IMG/VR virus record: IMGVR_UViG_3300037295_000360
Coordinates: 62,001-126,000 of that record
Source of the DNA: an uncultured virus (IMG/VR IMGVR_UViG_3300037295_000360)
Lineage: Duplodnaviria > Heunggongvirae > Uroviricota > Caudoviricetes
Reading direction: 5' to 3' (one strand)
Length of the DNA stretch: 64,000 nt
Shown: one piece after another, positions 1,264 through 14,360 of the stretch
Numbering within the stretch: position 1 is the first letter of the stretch
How the letters are laid out: each line of letters begins with the position of its first letter
Translations under genes and position numbers: made by a program
The notes under the pieces: generated by a model
Told to the model about the DNA's origin: nothing
What the model saw: the letters and a program-made list of their open reading frames with translations, nothing else
Databases searched by the model: none

Positions 1264-2559
1264 ATGTCAAACAATAAAACAACAACGCCATTTATCGATC
1301 AATTCGGAGAAGACCTAACAAAAATGGCAGCTGAAGGTAAATTAGATCCAATAATCGGGAGGGAAAAAGAAGTATATCGTATATGCCAAATTTTATCCCG
1401 TAGAAAAAAGAATAATCCAATTATATTAGGAGATCCTGGTGTTGGTAAAACTGCGCTGGTCGAAGCAATCGCACAACGCATTGTTGATAAAAAGGTTGCA
1501 ATGACTCTTCTTAATAAAAGAATAGTTTCGTTAAACATTGCAAATATAGTCGCGGGTACTAAATATCGTGGAGAATTTGAAGAACGAATGAAAAACATTG
1601 TTGATGAACTGAAGGAAAATAAAGACGTTATTGTGTTTATTGACGAGATTCATACAATAGTTGGTGCAGGTGGAGTGAGTGGTTCATTAGATGCGAGTAA
1701 CATTTTAAAACCAGCATTAGCAAGAGGCCAAGTACAATGTATAGGATCAACAACACTTGATGAATATAGAGAAAATATAGAAAAGGATGGAGCGCTTACT
1801 CGTAGATTCCAAGAAGTATTTATCGATCCTCCAAGTATTGAAGACACTGTCGAAATATTAAATAGAATCAAAGGTAATTATGAAGAGTATCATGCTGTTG
1901 AATATTCAGCCGAGGCGATCGAAGCGTGTGTTACACTTTCAGATAGATATATTACACAAAGAGAACTACCAGATAAGGCTATTGATATTATGGATGAGGC
2001 TGGCGCAAAGGTTCATTTATCAGAAATAAAATTACCTGAAAATATCAAAGAACTTGAAATTGAAGCCAACCTTATTAAAATAGAAAAGTTTGCTGCTGTA
2101 GAAAGTCAAGATTATGAAAAGGCAAGTAAGTTAAGAGACCTTGAACTTAGCAAAAAAGATGAAATATTAAACACCACTGCTCAGTGGGAAAAATCGTTTC
2201 GATTAAATAAAAAACAGGTAACATATGAGGATATTGCCGAAACAATATCGATGTCAACTGGAATTCCAGTTGCAAGAATGACTAACGATGAAAATCGAAT
2301 TATAGTCGACATGGAAAAGGAACTTAAGTCAATGATCATTGGACAAGACAAGGCGGTTGAAGGTCTTTGTAGGGTTATTAAAAGAAGTCGAACAGGCGTA
2401 AGCTCTCCTAAAAAACCAATCGGATCATTTATGTTTATTGGACCAACCGGTGTTGGTAAATGTTTTACCGGAGAAACTTTAATAACAATTAGAAATAAAG
2501 AAACAGGCGAAATTGAAGAGATTTCGATAAAAGATTTTAAACATAAATTAAAAAAATAG
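1264..2559 (+). CDS. clpC: ClpC-type Hsp100 ATPase, N-terminal part (NBD1, UVR/M-domain, start of NBD2) fused to a 32-aa N-intein
   Basis: GDPGVGKT, FIDEIH, LPDKAID; M-domain AVESQDYEKASKLRD; ends GPTGVGK|CFTGETLITIR...KLKK*. No N-terminal Clp-repeat domain. Confidence 0.93.
   Translation: MSNNKTTTPFIDQFGEDLTKMAAEGKLDPIIGREKEVYRICQILSRRKKNNPIILGDPGVGKTALVEAIAQRIVDKKVAMTLLNKRIVSLNIANIVAGTKYRGEFEERMKNIVDELKENKDVIVFIDEIHTIVGAGGVSGSLDASNILKPALARGQVQCIGSTTLDEYRENIEKDGALTRRFQEVFIDPPSIEDTVEILNRIKGNYEEYHAVEYSAEAIEACVTLSDRYITQRELPDKAIDIMDEAGAKVHLSEIKLPENIKELEIEANLIKIEKFAAVESQDYEKASKLRDLELSKKDEILNTTAQWEKSFRLNKKQVTYEDIAETISMSTGIPVARMTNDENRIIVDMEKELKSMIIGQDKAVEGLCRVIKRSRTGVSSPKKPIGSFMFIGPTGVGKCFTGETLITIRNKETGEIEEISIKDFKHKLKK
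2461..2556 (+). mobile_element. Split intein N-fragment (IntN, 32 aa)
   Basis: Cys directly follows the Walker A Lys. CFTGETLITIRNKETGEIEEISIKDF matches intein block A, then a stop at 2557-2559. Confidence 0.93.
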
Positions 2560-2591
2560 TCCGATGCCAGTCATTCTGATGGATATAATAT

Positions 2592-3801
2592 ATGAGAATA
2601 TTAAAAAGGATTTTAACAAAAAATGGATATGAGAAAGAAGTATTTGACATAGAAACAATTAGTGACTTTCTTTTTTATTACAATAGCATAATCAATAGCA
2701 CTGATAAATTTATAAAAATGCCAGAGCATGTTAATGAATTCATATTAGATAAAATAAATAATAATAAGGACGTAACTTATAAATCAACAAATCGTATTGT
2801 AAGTAAAATGATTAATAGTCCGAAATTTAAAACAAAAATCGAATATTGGACAATTAGGGGGTTATTCCATAGAAGAGGCTAAGATAAAAGTTTCTAAATT
2901 ACAAACAATTAATGCGAATTTATTTGCAAAGAAACGCCTGGAAAATCCAGAAGAGTATATTGGAATAATACCAAACCAATCAGAGTATTGGACTAAACTA
3001 GGTTTTTCGGAAACAGAGGCTAAGCTAAAAGTCAAAGAAAGACAAACGACATTTACTTTAGATAAATGTATTAAAAAACTAGGAGTAGACGAAGGTACTA
3101 AAAGATTTAATGATAGGCAAATTTAATGGCAAGCATTAAGAATAAAATCAGAAGGTAAAGATTGGTCATATACTGATCAATCTTTATCATTTGAAAAATA
3201 TATTAAAAGATATGGCGATGACTGGCTAATTTATAAAATTGACCATATTAAAAAAAATAAAAGATCAGAAAACATTCTAAGAATAAATGTATATTCTAAA
3301 ATAAACCAAATATGTTATGTTGAAAAACAAAATTTATTAGATTACTTATTAGAATTAAACTTTGACGAATTGTGTGAAATTATAAATAATGCAAATTCAG
3401 TAATAGAATTTATTTTAAAACTTAACCATGTTGAAATAAAATCAAAATAGTGTGCACATAATAATATTAAAAAAATAGTTACTAAAAAATGGGGTACTCG
3501 ATACTATTCAAATGGTAATTATTATCAAAGTACGGGTGAATTTGAAATTGGTTCATTTTTAGAAAAAAATAATATTGAATTTGAAATACATAAAAGATAT
3601 GAGGGTACGTATAGATTTAGTGATTTTTATATACCTTTTTTAGATTTATATGTAGAATTTATGGGAATGAAGGATGATGCATATATTGATAAAAAAAAAC
3701 AACTTAACAAAACACTATATAATATTATATGGTTTAACTCACCAGACAAAATTAAAAAACATATAAATGAAAAAATTTACGAATACAATAGATGTCAGTA
3801 A
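2592..3801 (+). pseudogene. Decayed free-standing homing endonuclease (Vsr/DUF559-like PD-(D/E)xK nuclease with N-terminal repeats)
   Basis: One extra G in the G5 run at 2857-2861, in-frame TAA at 3124-3126 and TAG at 3448-3450. The repaired frame (~402 aa) has EYW..G(Y/F)S..EAK.KV...Q twice and C-terminal QSTGEFEI...SDFYIPFLDLYVEFMG. Confidence 0.85.
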
Positions 3802-4108
3802 TTATGAAGTTCTTACTGATACGGGATTTGAAGATATTAAGAAGTTACATACAACAATCAAGTATGAGGTCTATGTTTTAAAAACAACCAATAAAACAAT
3901 AAGATGTGCTGATAATCACCTAGTATTTGATGAAAATTATAATCCAATATTTGTAAAAGATTTAAATCCAGGTGATAAAATAGTAACGACAGATTGTTTA
4001 GAAGAGGTTATGTATATTGAAAAGACAAATGAATTTGAAGAAATGTTTGATCTTGAATTACATGAAGGTAATAGAAGATACTTCACAAACGGAATACTAT
4101 CACATAAC
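3767..4108 (+). mobile_element. Split intein C-fragment (IntC, 114 aa)
   Basis: EVLTDTGF, block B IRCADNH, VKDLNPGDKI, block F MFDLEL, block G YFTNGILSHN, then Thr+1 at 4109. Confidence 0.93.
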
Positions 4109-4879
4109 ACCGAAACTGTAAAAGCCTTAGCGGAATATTACTTTGGAAATGAAAATGCGCTCATAAGAATTGATATGTCAGAATATCAAGAAAAGTTCAA
4201 TGTGAGCCGACTTATTGGAGCTCCTCCTGGATATATTGGACATGAACAAGGTGGTCAACTAACCGAACAAGTTAGACGTAAGCCATATTCGGTAATATTA
4301 TTTGATGAAATAGAAAAAGCACATCCAGATATTTTTAATACACTATTGCAAGTTCTTGATGATGGTAGATTAACTGACACTCTTGGTAGAACAATAGATT
4401 TTACTAACACTATTATCATTATGACAAGTAACGTTGGTGCAAAACGAGTTGCAGAATTTGGTGGAGGAATTGGATTCAGCAGCTCAAATACTTCTCTTAA
4501 ACTAGAAATGGAAACAGTTATTAGAAAAGAACTTAAAAATAAGTTTGCTCCTGAGTTCTTAAACAGACTTGATGAAATAGTTTTATTTGATGCACTTGCG
4601 ATTGAAAGCGTTATTAAAATTGCAGATATTGAAGTTGCAAATGTTGTTAAAAGAATGGAAAATCAAGGATATACTATAAAAATATCTAAAACTGCAATGC
4701 AACATATTGCAGAAAATGGATATGACTCACAATATGGAGCAAGGCCACTAAAGAGAGCAATACAAACGTATATTGAAGATCTATTAGCTGATTCAATTAT
4801 TGCCGGAACTATGGTTAAAGGAAATAAAGTATATAATATTTCTCACAAAAAAGGTGATGGTAAACTTTTTATCAAATAA
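3767..4879 (+). CDS. clpC: 114-aa C-intein fused to the C-terminal part of ClpC (rest of NBD2)
   Basis: ...YFTNGILSHN|TETVKALA; RIDMSEY, RLIGAPPGYIG, ILFDEIEKAH, ClpP-docking GIGF loop, GARPLKRAI. Confidence 0.93.
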   Translation: MKKFTNTIDVSNYEVLTDTGFEDIKKLHTTIKYEVYVLKTTNKTIRCADNHLVFDENYNPIFVKDLNPGDKIVTTDCLEEVMYIEKTNEFEEMFDLELHEGNRRYFTNGILSHNTETVKALAEYYFGNENALIRIDMSEYQEKFNVSRLIGAPPGYIGHEQGGQLTEQVRRKPYSVILFDEIEKAHPDIFNTLLQVLDDGRLTDTLGRTIDFTNTIIIMTSNVGAKRVAEFGGGIGFSSSNTSLKLEMETVIRKELKNKFAPEFLNRLDEIVLFDALAIESVIKIADIEVANVVKRMENQGYTIKISKTAMQHIAENGYDSQYGARPLKRAIQTYIEDLLADSIIAGTMVKGNKVYNISHKKGDGKLFIK

Positions 4880-4906: not shown

Positions 4907-5761
4907 ATGCAAAATTTTTCAAAAGTATTTCAAAATATAATTTCAGATATTAAATTAGATGGAAAGGTCTCTACACCAAGAGACTTAGAGGTTGTAGAAC
5001 TAATGTATGGTGGATATAAAGTAAATCCAATTGAGCCAATTGCGAATTTCAATGACAGAGAATTTAACTTTAAATATTTTGCAGGAGAACTTGTATGGTA
5101 TTTAAACAAAGAAACTGATGTCAATTACATTAATCAATTTTCTGGATTCTGGAAAAACATAACAAATCCAGGAACAAACGAAATCAATTCAAATTACGGT
5201 TCTCTTTTATTTGGAGAACAATTACAATGGGTATTAAATACACTTAAATCCGATAAAAATTCAAGACAGGCAATTGCTTTCTTAAATCAACCTAAATATC
5301 AAGTAAAAGGTAATAAAGATTTTGTGTGCACAATGTATCTTAATTTTTCGATTAGAGATAACATGTTGGATATGAAAGTACAAATGAGATCTAATGATAT
5401 TTTTTATGGTCTTACATTTGATGCCCCTTTCTTTGCATTAGTACAACAACATGTTCATATGTGGCTTAAGTCAACATATCCTGAATTAGAATTAGGAATA
5501 TATCATCACTACTCCGATAATATTCATTTTTATCAAAGACATTATGAATTGGCTGAAAAAATAGTAATGGATCATCCGCATGTTAATCAATATAATATGA
5601 ATTTAATTACTCCTCTGTTTAATATTGAAAATGGTAATATAATAATAACTGATCATGGTATTAAAATGATAAATAACATAAATGAAGCGGTTAATAATAA
5701 CAAAGATAAACATGAATATTATAAAATATTATGTGAATATCTTAATATAAATAAAGTATGA
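4907..5761 (+). CDS. Thymidylate-synthase-fold pyrimidine (probably dCMP) hydroxymethylase/methylase, T4 gp42-like
   Basis: NSNYG, DKNSRQA, catalytic KDFVCT, MRSNDIFYGLTFD (Asp where canonical ThyA has Asn), HFYQRH. Confidence 0.75.
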   Translation: MQNFSKVFQNIISDIKLDGKVSTPRDLEVVELMYGGYKVNPIEPIANFNDREFNFKYFAGELVWYLNKETDVNYINQFSGFWKNITNPGTNEINSNYGSLLFGEQLQWVLNTLKSDKNSRQAIAFLNQPKYQVKGNKDFVCTMYLNFSIRDNMLDMKVQMRSNDIFYGLTFDAPFFALVQQHVHMWLKSTYPELELGIYHHYSDNIHFYQRHYELAEKIVMDHPHVNQYNMNLITPLFNIENGNIIITDHGIKMINNINEAVNNNKDKHEYYKILCEYLNINKV

Positions 5762-6054: not shown

Positions 6055-6726
6055 ATGAACTACGAAAAGGAATTTAACAAGTATGCGATGAGCGATCACA
6101 ATGTAAGCTCATCGACTATGGAATATTATAAGAAACAAATCCAAGGATCAATGACTCCATATATTTTAGAGGAGAGAGAATTGAGAGCGACACAGATGGA
6201 TATTTTTTCAAGACTTATGATGGACCGCGTTCTATGGGTTGCCGGAACTGTGAATGATAATATGTCAACAATAGTACAGGCGCAATTAATGTTTCTGGAT
6301 TCTGTCGATAAAAGAGATATAACAATGCATATTGATTCTGGAGGAGGTTCTGTAAAATCAGGTCTTTCTATGGTTGACGTAATGGAATATATCAACTCAG
6401 ATATAAAAACAGTTAACACAGGAATGGCAGCGTCGATGGGTTCTGTATTATTAGGAGCTGGAACTAAAGGTAAGAGAAGTTCTCTAAGACACTCTACCAC
6501 TATGTTACATCAATCTTCTGGAGGATTTAGTGGAAACATTCAAGACGCAGAAATTGATTGGGCTGAATGGAAAAAAGTTAACAAAGAATTATTTAATTTG
6601 TTAGGACAATATTGTGGTAAAAAACCAGAACAAGTAATGAATGATGCGACTCGGGATTTATGGTTAAACGCCGAAGAGGCATTAAAATATGGAATTATAG
6701 ATGAAATCATTACTGCCAAGAGATAA
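6055..6726 (+). CDS. clpP: ATP-dependent Clp protease proteolytic subunit
   Basis: DIFSRL, SGGGSV, AASMG (Ser), MLHQ (His), RDLWL (Asp); Bacteroidota-type N-terminus (EFNKYA...MTPYILEER). Confidence 0.97.
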   Translation: MNYEKEFNKYAMSDHNVSSSTMEYYKKQIQGSMTPYILEERELRATQMDIFSRLMMDRVLWVAGTVNDNMSTIVQAQLMFLDSVDKRDITMHIDSGGGSVKSGLSMVDVMEYINSDIKTVNTGMAASMGSVLLGAGTKGKRSSLRHSTTMLHQSSGGFSGNIQDAEIDWAEWKKVNKELFNLLGQYCGKKPEQVMNDATRDLWLNAEEALKYGIIDEIITAKR

Positions 6727-11786: not shown

Positions 11787-14360
11787 ATGCCTCCACTAAT
11801 TAAAATCAAACAAATAGATGGGCTAGAGGAAGCGTTATCTACTATTGGAAATCAAGGATACCAAGGAAATCAGGGTATTATAGGCGCTCAAGGGCTAGTT
11901 GGACCTCAAGGATTAATTGGAAATCAAGGATTACTAGGTTTTCAAGGATTTATTGGACAACAGGGATTAGTTGGACCTCAAGGATTAGTTGGACCTCAAG
12001 GATCAGTTGGACCTCAAGGATTACTAGGTTTTCAAGGATTTATTGGACAACAGGGATTAGTTGGACCTCAAGGATTAGTTGGAAATCAAGGATCAGTTGG
12101 ACCTCAAGGATTAATTGGGTTTCAAGGATTAGTTGGACAACAGGGATTAGTTGGGTTTCAAGGATTTATTGGAGATCAGGGATTAATTGGACCTCAAGGA
12201 TTAGTTGGACCTCAAGGTTTTAAAGGAGATCAGGGATTAATTGGTTTTCAAGGATTAGTTGGACAACAGGGATTAGTTGGGTTTCAAGGATTTATTGGAG
12301 ATCAGGGATTAATTGGACCTCAAGGATTAGTTGGACCTCAAGGATTAGTTGGACAACAGGGATTTATTGGTTTTCAAGGTGCAGTTGGACCACCAACTAC
12401 CACTGCAACTGACAGTAGTAAATTACCATTATCAGGTGGTACTTTATCGGGTACAATTAAACGAACATCTTCTATTACCGGATTTCTCGAAGGCTCATAT
12501 GATAATGTCGGCGCTAATGGCGGTCATACTAATCCAATTTATACTATAGGTAGTAACTACAATCCTGCACTAACATCACTTAGCGACATGTACGGTATAG
12601 GGTATACTATTGGAGGTGGAGCTGGCGTAAGTGCTCAAGGAGCAGGTAGTGGTTGGGGAATGTATGTTGCAGCAGGCGGTAATTCAAGAATATTTTTAAG
12701 TGCATCATCAGGAAACATAGGTATTGCAGGAACATATTATGGGTCTGGCGGCGGATTAACTGGGAATGCGGGTTCATTAAGTATTGGCGGTAATGCTGCA
12801 AGAGCTTCAAGAGCAAATGGTAATTTTTACATTGATGATAATTTTGGTGTTGGTGTTGTAGGTCTCTATAATGCATCAAGATACCAAGGTGTGTTTGCGA
12901 TGGGTGATGCTTATAAACCTTCTGCTGATGGTACAAGTTTAAACAACAGTTATGGTATTGTTTGGACACATACAGATGTAGGTGGTCAATCAAAAACAGG
13001 ATTAGGTCATCAAATGCTAATTACTGAAGCTGGTGTAACTCAAACTGCAATAGGTAATGGTATATGGACGAGAGCAACTGTAACGGCAGGAACAGGAACA
13101 AATGGTGGATTTGAAAATGGAACGTATAATAATGGACACAATAATATTTGGCGATTTGGTAATGCTAAAGAATATGGTATAGGTTATTACCAGGCGTGGT
13201 CAGGAAATGTTGGTAATGTAAATCAAGATGCAATAGGATTTCATTTTGGTAATAGAGAAACACCTAGTTTCTGGGTTAGCCACAATGGGGATACAAGAGC
13301 TCGGTCATTTTCAGGAACATCATTTAATGGTTCTTTGAATGGTAATGCATCATACGCTACTGCTTTCCAGAGAAAATCTTTTACTGATGCAAACGCAGAA
13401 TTTAGTGCAACAGAAGCTGGCACTAAGAGATACTCAGGTGATAATCCGAATATTTCTAATGGTCCTGGTGGAACATGGTGGAACTATGAAACTCTTCGTC
13501 ACTCTGACGGAGGTAATTTATGGGGAACTCAAATAGCATGGGGATGGGAAGATAATGCTAATAAATTAGCAGTAAGGTGTGTGTCAGGCGGTACTTTCGG
13601 AGGATGGGCTTATTATCTTAATAGTTCAAACGTAGCAAGTTATGCATTGCCTATTGGTGGAGGAACTTTAACAGGTGCATTAACAGCACCTACGTTTAAT
13701 GGAGCATTGAATGGTAATGCAAATACTGCTAATAATATATCAGGAAACACCTTTATATTAGGAGGAGGTAGTGTTACTAATTCAGCTGCAATAGGCATGT
13801 ATTTGAATAATAATAATGATACAAATTACTGGATAGGAAAGTCTGCAGGTGCCTGGACACAACCTTTAGATGTTTCATTTTATACAGGAGTTAGATATAG
13901 CGCGTATCAAGGATATGGAGGACATGTTTTCTATACCGGAGGGTATAGGAACGTAGAAGCCTTCTCAGTAGGTAATGGAGATAACAATACACGAGTTAAT
14001 TACAATTTACTTGTTACTGGCTCAATTACAGCAAGTGGTGATATTACTGCATTTTCGGATATTAGAGTTAAAGAAAACATTAAAGTAATTCCAGATGCAA
14101 TTGAAAAGATTAAAGCGCTCCGGGGTGTTACATTTACAAGAAATGACAAAGATGATAAAATATCTCGATCATCTGGTGTTATTGCCCAGGAAGTTTTAAA
14201 GGTAATGCCAGAATTAGTTAAAGCAGACGTAACTGGAATGTACTCGGTTGCATATGGTAACATGGCGGGTCTTTTCATTGAAGCTATAAAGGAACAACAA
14301 TCACAAATAGATGAATTAAAGGAACTTGTAAGACTTCTTTTAAAAAATAAAGATAAATAA
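11787..14360 (+). CDS. Collagen-shaft tail fibre with C-terminal intramolecular chaperone (peptidase S74)
   Basis: 61 Gly-X-Y triplets, LPLSGGTLSG/LPIGGGTLTG fibre motifs, FSDIRVKENI...LRGVTF...GVIAQE autocleavage domain and terminal coiled coil. Confidence 0.9.
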   Translation: MPPLIKIKQIDGLEEALSTIGNQGYQGNQGIIGAQGLVGPQGLIGNQGLLGFQGFIGQQGLVGPQGLVGPQGSVGPQGLLGFQGFIGQQGLVGPQGLVGNQGSVGPQGLIGFQGLVGQQGLVGFQGFIGDQGLIGPQGLVGPQGFKGDQGLIGFQGLVGQQGLVGFQGFIGDQGLIGPQGLVGPQGLVGQQGFIGFQGAVGPPTTTATDSSKLPLSGGTLSGTIKRTSSITGFLEGSYDNVGANGGHTNPIYTIGSNYNPALTSLSDMYGIGYTIGGGAGVSAQGAGSGWGMYVAAGGNSRIFLSASSGNIGIAGTYYGSGGGLTGNAGSLSIGGNAARASRANGNFYIDDNFGVGVVGLYNASRYQGVFAMGDAYKPSADGTSLNNSYGIVWTHTDVGGQSKTGLGHQMLITEAGVTQTAIGNGIWTRATVTAGTGTNGGFENGTYNNGHNNIWRFGNAKEYGIGYYQAWSGNVGNVNQDAIGFHFGNRETPSFWVSHNGDTRARSFSGTSFNGSLNGNASYATAFQRKSFTDANAEFSATEAGTKRYSGDNPNISNGPGGTWWNYETLRHSDGGNLWGTQIAWGWEDNANKLAVRCVSGGTFGGWAYYLNSSNVASYALPIGGGTLTGALTAPTFNGALNGNANTANNISGNTFILGGGSVTNSAAIGMYLNNNNDTNYWIGKSAGAWTQPLDVSFYTGVRYSAYQGYGGHVFYTGGYRNVEAFSVGNGDNNTRVNYNLLVTGSITASGDITAFSDIRVKENIKVIPDAIEKIKALRGVTFTRNDKDDKISRSSGVIAQEVLKVMPELVKADVTGMYSVAYGNMAGLFIEAIKEQQSQIDELKELVRLLLKNKDK
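11847..12395 (+). repeat. Collagen-like 18-bp coding repeat (G-x-Q-G-hydrophobic-hydrophobic)
   Basis: 61 uninterrupted triplets from GNQ to GPP; DNA unit like GGACCTCAAGGATTAGTT. Confidence 0.95.

Follow-up and report, generated by a model that had tools for sequence, protein, structure and literature searches.

A ClpC-like ATPase gene of a salt-lake phage is interrupted at its second Walker A motif by a putative atypically split intein

The window, i.e., the whole stretch of 64,000 nucleotides analysed here, belongs to a 170-kb IMG/VR virus record and represents a phage from salt-lake metagenomes. Near its start, the gene of a ClpC-like ATPase is divided between two open reading frames (ORFs); the end of the first and the beginning of the second resemble the N-terminal and C-terminal parts of a split intein (IntN and IntC, respectively), with the remains of a homing endonuclease gene between them. 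The ATPase portions on either side are referred to as the N-extein and the C-extein. The features of the locus are as follows.

1264..2460, + strand: N-extein, comprising the first nucleotide-binding domain (NBD1, Walker A GDPGVGKT), the AAA lid, a UVR-type middle motif and the start of the second nucleotide-binding domain (NBD2) up to Walker A Lys399.
2461..2559, + strand: putative IntN, 32 residues from Cys1 (CFTGETLITIRNKETGEIEEISIKDFKHKLKK), then a TAG stop at 2557-2559.
2592..3801, + strand: homing endonuclease pseudogene, probably Vsr-like, with three lesions; its 3' end overlaps the start of IntC by 35 nucleotides.
3767..4108, + strand: putative IntC of 114 residues, bearing CADNH with His51 (block B), Asp95 (block F) and SHN114 (block G).
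4109..4879, + strand: C-extein of 256 residues and a stop, which opens with the Walker A Thr (+1) and continues through the remainder of NBD2, including a GGGIGFSS loop, to the D2-small domain.
6055..6726, + strand: ClpP peptidase gene (NCBIfam ClpP models), outside the intein element and given as context only.

The first ORF (1264..2559) encodes 431 amino acids and ends in ...FMFIGPTGVGKCFTGETLITIRNKETGEIEEISIKDFKHKLKK before its stop, and the second (3767..4879) encodes 370, of which the first 114 end in ...NGILSHN and are followed by TETVKALAEYYFG. Pfam assigns AAA, AAA_lid_9 and UVR to the first protein; in the second, it places AAA_2 at residues 114-271, starting from profile position 16 and thus just past the P-loop, and ClpB_D2-small at residues 279-355. 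Joined at the junction, the exteins give 399 + 256 = 655 residues. A first-pass annotation, made from the sequence without database searches, had reported these ORF coordinates, the 32-residue IntN, the 114-residue IntC and the sum of the exteins, all of which we could confirm to the base.

Relatives without the interruption show what the two ORFs would yield if spliced. In five syntenic contigs (L001-L003, L005 and L006), which share the gene order ClpC, thymidylate-synthase-like, orf98 and ClpP, the ClpC gene is single and uninterrupted. The exteins of L001-L003 are the most similar to those of the window among viral contigs (79-82% identity), those of L005 and L006 being more distant. The uninterrupted ClpC of L001 has 657 amino acids; the N-extein of the window is 82% identical to its residues 1-399, and the C-extein shares 79% identity with the same protein. 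Across the junction, L001-L003 read GPTGVGKTETVKAL, also written ...FMFIGPTGVGKTETVKAL... and ...FMFIGPTGVGKTETVKALSEYYFG, which is exactly the product predicted from splicing the two proteins of the window. These empty-site orthologues bear out the earlier proposal that joining the exteins restores an intact NBD2 P-loop. They are also in line with its corollary that, with Lys and Thr encoded on separate polypeptides, an intact P-loop would depend on trans-splicing.

The residues expected for splicing are present in the two halves, namely Cys1, block B His51, Asp95, His113-Asn114 and Thr+1, and in an alignment of IntC relatives His51, D95, H113, N114 and T115 are invariant. By sequence, IntC matched VidaL (E 4.3e-6), CatC (5.7e-5) and gp41-1 (1.7e-4) in the PDB. 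The AlphaFold model of IntC, built from 15 sequences, is all-beta with a mean predicted local distance difference test (pLDDT) of 89.4, and Foldseek found 42 matches to it in the PDB at E <= 0.001, the matches listed being inteins or intein-like Hint domains. VidaL was again the best (E 6.1e-8, template modelling score 0.78, root-mean-square deviation 1.3 over 100 columns), followed by Cat (E 4.7e-6, template modelling score 0.71, identity of about 28%). Furthermore, a search of 1.84 billion proteins with IntC yielded 854 representative proteins at E <= 1e-3, 478 of them at E <= 1e-10. Given these representatives and the PDB matches, the intein assignment is far beyond chance.

We co-folded the end of the N fragment (residues 393-431) with the beginning of the C fragment (residues 1-125), and the halves reached an interface score (ipSAE) of 0.80 as compared with 0.02 for the best of three controls; 116 of 157 solved complexes attain the ipSAE mark used, as do 2 of 215 mismatched pairs. 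Contact agreement between runs was at least 81% and partner pLDDT at least 79. The predicted docking suggests that the pair resembles a split intein and does not imply binding by this particular copy. As for the position of the break, residue 14 of IntC aligns with VidaL residue 43 and CatN has 30 amino acids, suggesting a split after the first helix (the 'S2' type); going by these alignments, the split site most likely lies at the 'S2' place, as in AceL-TerL and GOS-TerL. Overall, the feature appears to be a class-1 Hint intein, naturally and atypically split, that would splice in trans.

Several observations weigh against this reading and should be considered alongside it. The Thr of the block B TxxH motif is Ala here (CADNH), as it is at the aligned place of VidaL (CAFNH). 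The C fragment scores 19.6 bits against the Pfam model Intein_splicing (PF14890), under the cut-off of 35.8; this model spans a whole intein, and just its last blocks align to the C fragment. A sequence search of the PDB with IntN alone gave no match because the query is too short. Since the structures of Cat and VidaL are solved, the co-fold might have passed on likeness to them. The ligated product is one that sequence and computation predict. Finally, the split is rare among the ClpC loci that we fetched with the C fragment (160 in all, comprising the best 80 viral and the best 80 metagenome loci): 157 are contiguous, two are split and one is cut by a contig end. No further split locus occurs among the best 80 metagenome contig loci, all 80 of which are contiguous, so that the three exceptions to 77 contiguous P-loops fall among the best 80 viral loci. 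The first-pass annotation had proposed looking for the same insertion site in phage Clp ATPases, and two of these viral loci are indeed split there, L004 with just 78 nucleotides between the halves and L008 with a 91-residue nuclease remnant between them. The cut locus, L018, is a viral contig whose positions 1-774 begin exactly at N/TFLAKQ of the ClpC NBD2 extein (here and below, a slash marks the junction); it is probably a further intein-bearing copy that was cut by the contig end.

Weighing both sides, we consider it very probable that the locus is a fractured gene in which an atypical split intein lies between Lys and Thr in the Walker A motif of NBD2 and the ATPase is rejoined by protein trans-splicing.

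The wider occurrence of the intein accords with this. IntC lies within the first 45 residues in 126 of the 150 best representatives, which are therefore stand-alone IntC-extein fragments. Among the same 150, the HN end is kept in 148, and 102 have Thr at +1 as opposed to 44 with Ser. Thr at +1, which the first-pass annotation mentioned when naming the 32-residue IntN a candidate protein-engineering tool, is thus the norm in this intein family. Two T4-type terminases were recognized among 12 sampled representatives run through Pfam, and a Clp-type C-extein like that of the window follows IntC in 7 of the best 150, one of which (P0007) is probably ClpX-like. In P0122 and P0145, a member of the IntC family precedes the NBD1 part of Clp ATPases (SHN/TAIAEGLA...); therefore, the first Walker A of Clp ATPases is a target as well.

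Searches with the two halves of the window were more specific to the ClpC site. With the 370-residue C fragment, IntC was found in front of a ClpC NBD2 extein in 104 of the best 120 clusters, with SHN/T in 104/104 and CADxH in 103/104 of these. With the tail of the N fragment, 26/26 clusters end 30-37 residues after GxGK/C and keep Cys1, and their IntN shares the pattern CxTxDTxIxIRNKxTGxIE. Many lineages have thus retained the two halves in register, and the locus is part of a large natural family of atypically split inteins. The short-IntN, long-IntC type originally proposed for this intein is one on which motifs, fold, co-fold and conservation in many clusters agree.

This conservation also bears on whether the halves still splice. 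They might have lost that ability and serve only as a module for non-covalent dimerisation, keeping the two parts of ClpC together, an association of intein halves that has been described for fragmented NrdA (excerpt of PMC3045599). The predicted association of the halves would fit such a module, and with the endonuclease lost, some decay of function is conceivable. The splicing residues are, however, conserved at the frequencies given above (Cys1 in all 26 N-fragment clusters, SHN and Thr+1 in all 104 C-fragment clusters, the block B His motif in all except one of the latter), and a 146-residue Hint domain sitting between the Walker A Lys and Thr would be expected to disrupt nucleotide binding. 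We regard a module that holds the halves without splicing them as quite improbable.

Other members of the family show variations on the fractured layout. P0072 (771 amino acids) is a ClpC C fragment that begins with the same IntC and carries, in addition, a second, contiguous LAGLIDADG intein inside AAA_2, at about residues 153-557. At L083:1708-4679, a fractured PhoH-like ATPase has a single ORF of 670 amino acids that runs from the N-extein through a short IntN into an entire Vsr-like endonuclease and is followed by an IntC-extein ORF (SHN/SGKT). At L084:1986-6252, a DnaB-like helicase gene is interrupted by two split inteins. The first is atypical, having a short IntN, and comes with a Vsr-like endonuclease gene; the second has a long IntN and comes with a further endonuclease gene.

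In the window, the 1.2-kb spacer between the halves (2560-3766) is one gene-length frame that is broken three times. ORF 2592-2882 runs into a frameshift at the G-run 2857-2861, and the next frame holds TAA at 3124-3126 and TAG at 3448-3450; the endonuclease frame ends at 3801, 35 nucleotides inside the IntC gene. The intact endonuclease of L083 aligns straight through the TAA of the window at 55% identity (E 2e-30), with Lys at that position, and the same alignment shows that the frameshift cuts a repeat unit, EYW..G.S.EEAK. The last spacer piece matches the catalytic core of a Staphylococcus phage protein annotated as 'group I intron-associated VSR homing endonuclease' (3e-4 by tblastn, 8e-11 in a BLASTP pair) as well as phrog_559 (E 5.5e-6). 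The fractured arrangement described in the first-pass annotation therefore stands insofar as the halves flank an endonuclease frame; the free-standing endonuclease gene that it included is not intact, as its frame is broken three times.

The open form of this endonuclease, 402 amino acids long, exists in the protein database as P0271. Its Atlas look-alikes, all under 0.9, point to DUF559 and serve as leads only. Pfam returned nothing usable on four spacer frames and no match on P0271, and a PDB sequence search gave no match for the last endonuclease piece, the L008 remnant or P0271. Scanning the viral contigs with the last endonuclease piece recovered no relative. A hairpin before the endonuclease start, as in Dassa 2009, is unsupported (z-score -0.33). 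By eye, the His of the E..G..H motif could not be aligned even in the open allele, which reads DDAYI as opposed to GDAYH; with Ile in place of the His found in relatives, the nuclease may have been inactive before its frame broke. We rejected an alternative genetic code as the explanation of the two in-frame stops, considering that 50 gene-length + strand ORFs of the window are open under table 11 and that sister strains read CAA and TGG at the two codons.

These sister strains come from salt-lake metagenomes. The stretch is present in 15 such runs, two of which may be the source of the window, and we compared the window with contigs of four other runs (X3-X6, from four studies) covering 2300-4300. 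Each differs from the window at 14-19 positions (about 99% identity), the region being undivided in X3, X4 and X6 and made up of two pieces in X5. All four have one G fewer at 2857, C at 3124 (giving CAA) and G at 3449 (giving TGG), and are therefore in the open state at all three lesion sites of the window; these lesions make up three of the four endonuclease differences that are common to X3-X6. In X3, X5 and X6, no listed difference breaks the endonuclease frame. X4 has lesions of its own, namely TGG to TGA at 2991 and one base missing from an A8 run at 3250. The latter sits in a homopolymer and might be an assembly error. With the sister strains open at the sites broken in the window, and X4 broken elsewhere, the allele of the window is a recent pseudogene, and decay has occurred at least twice in this population.

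The coding parts of the intein and the ATPase behave differently. All nine extein differences between strains are synonymous (9/9), including 5/5 in the C-extein; the single strain difference in IntN is synonymous as well (K423K), and IntC has two synonymous and three amino-acid differences (V37I, D55N and Y58H). In X3-X6, neither the IntN stop nor the IntC start differs from the window. Intein and exteins are under purifying selection while the endonuclease decays.

The strain comparison speaks to two further explanations. The first is that the ClpC gene is dead, a pseudogene with a junk interruption whose ORFs are open by chance. The spacer does hold a decayed gene, and RNA is on record for none of the 15 runs with the stretch, a blank that counts neither way. 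Yet the ORFs of 431 and 370 amino acids have stayed open while the 1.2-kb spacer gained three lesions, the extein differences between strains are without exception synonymous, and the two-ORF layout recurs in the 104 and 26 protein clusters, all of which makes a dead gene very improbable. The second is an assembly or sequencing artefact hiding a real gene with one contiguous intein or none. The window does come from a metagenome assembly, and the G-run 2857-2861, where one endonuclease lesion sits, is a homopolymer. Nonetheless, the contigs of four runs keep the IntN stop, the spacer and the IntC start, thereby reproducing the split rather than the one contiguous ORF that the first-pass annotation had named as the outcome that would speak against it. 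Every sampled word of the window allele also occurs in two further runs, but these may be its source, and in L004 and L008, which are unrelated contigs, the break falls at this very position. We find an artefact scarcely credible.

We use 'ClpC-like' as the safe name for the host protein. Both AAA+ modules, with the lid and D2-small domains, are present (Pfam AAA, AAA_lid_9, AAA_2 and ClpB_D2-small), which upholds this part of the 'ClpC' label given earlier. However, Clp_N is absent among the matches listed (25 of 39 Pfam families), NBD1 beginning near residue 30, and the contiguous relative L001 scores under the NCBIfam cut-offs for both ClpB (815 vs 1232) and ClpA (721 vs 993), hence the more cautious name. 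The ClpP gene lies 1.2 kb downstream of the split locus, and its matches to NCBIfam ClpP models range from E 4e-72 to 3e-54, each of them under the cut-off of the model. The C-extein contains the GGGIGFSS loop, whose tripeptide may be the ClpP-docking IGF/IGL loop, going by the docking loops of ClpA and ClpC. The phage ClpP is thus a likely partner of the spliced ATPase, with which it would give a ClpCP-type protease.

Putting these observations together, we propose that a mobile cassette, consisting of a short IntN, a homing endonuclease gene and a long IntC, entered the second Walker A motif, between its codons for Lys and Thr. The halves would be translated apart, as a 431-residue protein (N-extein and IntN) and a 370-residue protein (IntC and C-extein), and docking of IntN on IntC would complete the class-1 Hint fold. 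A thioester at Cys1, attack by Thr+1 and cyclisation of Asn114 would then lead to ligation of the exteins into a 655-residue protein with an intact P-loop, GPTGVGKT. Since Lys399 and Thr+1 are on separate chains, and docking would place a 146-residue domain between them, NBD2 is expected to be inactive until ligation. The spliced ATPase would form hexamers and feed the phage ClpP through the IGF loop. The endonuclease, which presumably spread the cassette in the past, is dead in this copy, and the split intein would be kept because any loss short of precise deletion would destroy the ATPase.

A different view of why the split has been kept is that it acts as a post-translational gate on ClpC-ClpP, in which activity needs an accumulation of both halves and a reduced Cys1, thereby timing or conditioning proteolysis in the course of infection. 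A gate would explain why the two-piece layout persists in more than 100 clusters after the endonuclease has been lost or has died. We hold such a role to be unlikely.

The remainder of the window provides context for the locus. Its G+C content is about 30%, and the + strand holds every ORF of at least 130 amino acids that is not nested inside a longer + strand ORF. Among the genes of the virus record are those for tail fibre, baseplate, PhoH and exonuclease. A Shine-Dalgarno-like motif was found at 3 of 50 gene starts, the leaders being A/T-rich; few Shine-Dalgarno motifs together with A/T-rich leaders are typical of phages of hosts such as Bacteroidota. The leader of the IntC gene is likewise A/T-rich and Shine-Dalgarno-free, as in other genes of the window. 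Promoter-like sites are not enriched (28 vs 22.5 +/- 4.3). A terminator-like hairpin, ACCAACCGGTGTTGGT with a T-rich tail, lies at 2442-2457 (+), coinciding exactly with the P-loop codons where extein and IntN meet; chance may account for it, its palindrome being part of the coding sequence of GPTGVG. The ClpC locus is flanked by a gene cut by the window start (1-1152), which from its translation we take to be serine hydroxymethyltransferase-like, and by a divergent thymidylate-synthase-like gene at 4907-5761 (NCBIfam E 7e-13, far under the cut-off). Farther along, a bump in G+C content to 0.395 (12001-14000) coincides with an 857-residue tail-fibre gene (11787-14360) with collagen-like matches.

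Each kind of element combined at this locus is already published (PMC13014065, PMC10189870, PMC2677866, PMC5050341 and PMC4760082): atypically split inteins, Vsr-like fractured genes and K/T sites in P-loops are all known, and the window does not hold a new kind of system. The first-pass annotation had suggested that a split intein in a Hsp100/Clp ATPase might be new. On the one hand, no paper on a Clp/Hsp100 intein was found: 'Clp', 'ATPase' and 'chaperone' have 0 occurrences in Dassa 2009 (PMC2677866), 'Clp' occurs twice in the main text of Novikova 2016 (PMC4760082), where the body passage available names ClpP, and the open-access full texts gave no ClpA, ClpB, ClpC, ClpX or Hsp100 intein host, the supplementary host tables of PMC4760082 being outside that scope. 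On the other hand, the geometry is published and the same ClpC layout is common in metagenomes. The host therefore seems to be what is unpublished, and with it a protein-quality-control ATPase joins a list of hosts dominated by DNA enzymes.

Among split inteins, the closest known systems are Cat and its natural parents, AceL-TerL and GOS-TerL, with which the window shares a class-1 Hint fold split near its N-terminus, an IntC of more than 100 amino acids and an origin in phage environmental DNA. Their IntN has 25-30 amino acids (PMC13014065) as compared with 32 here, and they differ in that their host is the terminase large subunit, whereas here it is a ClpC-like unfoldase with Thr at +1; sequence identity is about 28%. 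Of the two solved structures compared (Cat, PDB 6dsl, and VidaL, PDB 6vgv), VidaL is the best solved match by both sequence and fold and shares the Ala in place of the block B Thr. Its IntN has 16 amino acids and ends after strand beta2 ('S1'; PMC13014065), so that the split of the window lies about 13 residues beyond that of VidaL and its IntN is twice as long. Published split sites fall after beta2 (VidaL and PolB16) or after the first helix (AceL-TerL and GOS-TerL), and natural atypical IntN range from 15 to 37 amino acids (PMC13014065), a range that includes the 32 residues found here next to an IntC of 114. Few atypically split inteins are characterised, namely AceL-TerL, GOS-TerL, VidaL, PolB16 and the engineered consensus Cat (PMC13014065, PMC10189870), and they are prized for a short IntN that can be obtained by peptide synthesis.

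With the fractured genes of Dassa 2009, the locus shares the order of extein-IntN, endonuclease gene and IntC-extein, phage origin, overlapping frames and, probably, a Vsr-like endonuclease family (PMC2677866). The hosts named there are enzymes of DNA and nucleotides, namely a polymerase catalytic subunit, NrdA, NrdJ, DNA ligase and terminase (PMC2677866), and in contrast to those fractured genes the endonuclease in the copy of the window is a pseudogene. K/T in the P-loop is a 'classic' intein insertion site (PMC5050341). The same Lys/Thr insertion with Thr at +1 is found in TerL1-a of mycobacteriophages (PMC5050341) and in DnaB-b, MCM-a and RFC-a (PMC4760082); these are one-piece, cis-splicing inteins of other ATPases, whereas that of the window is encoded by two genes. 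What is particular to the window is the combination of a second-P-loop site, syntenic empty-site orthologues and an endonuclease in differing states of decay within one population, in which the homing cycle is caught in the act, the endonuclease being open in some strains and differently broken in two others.

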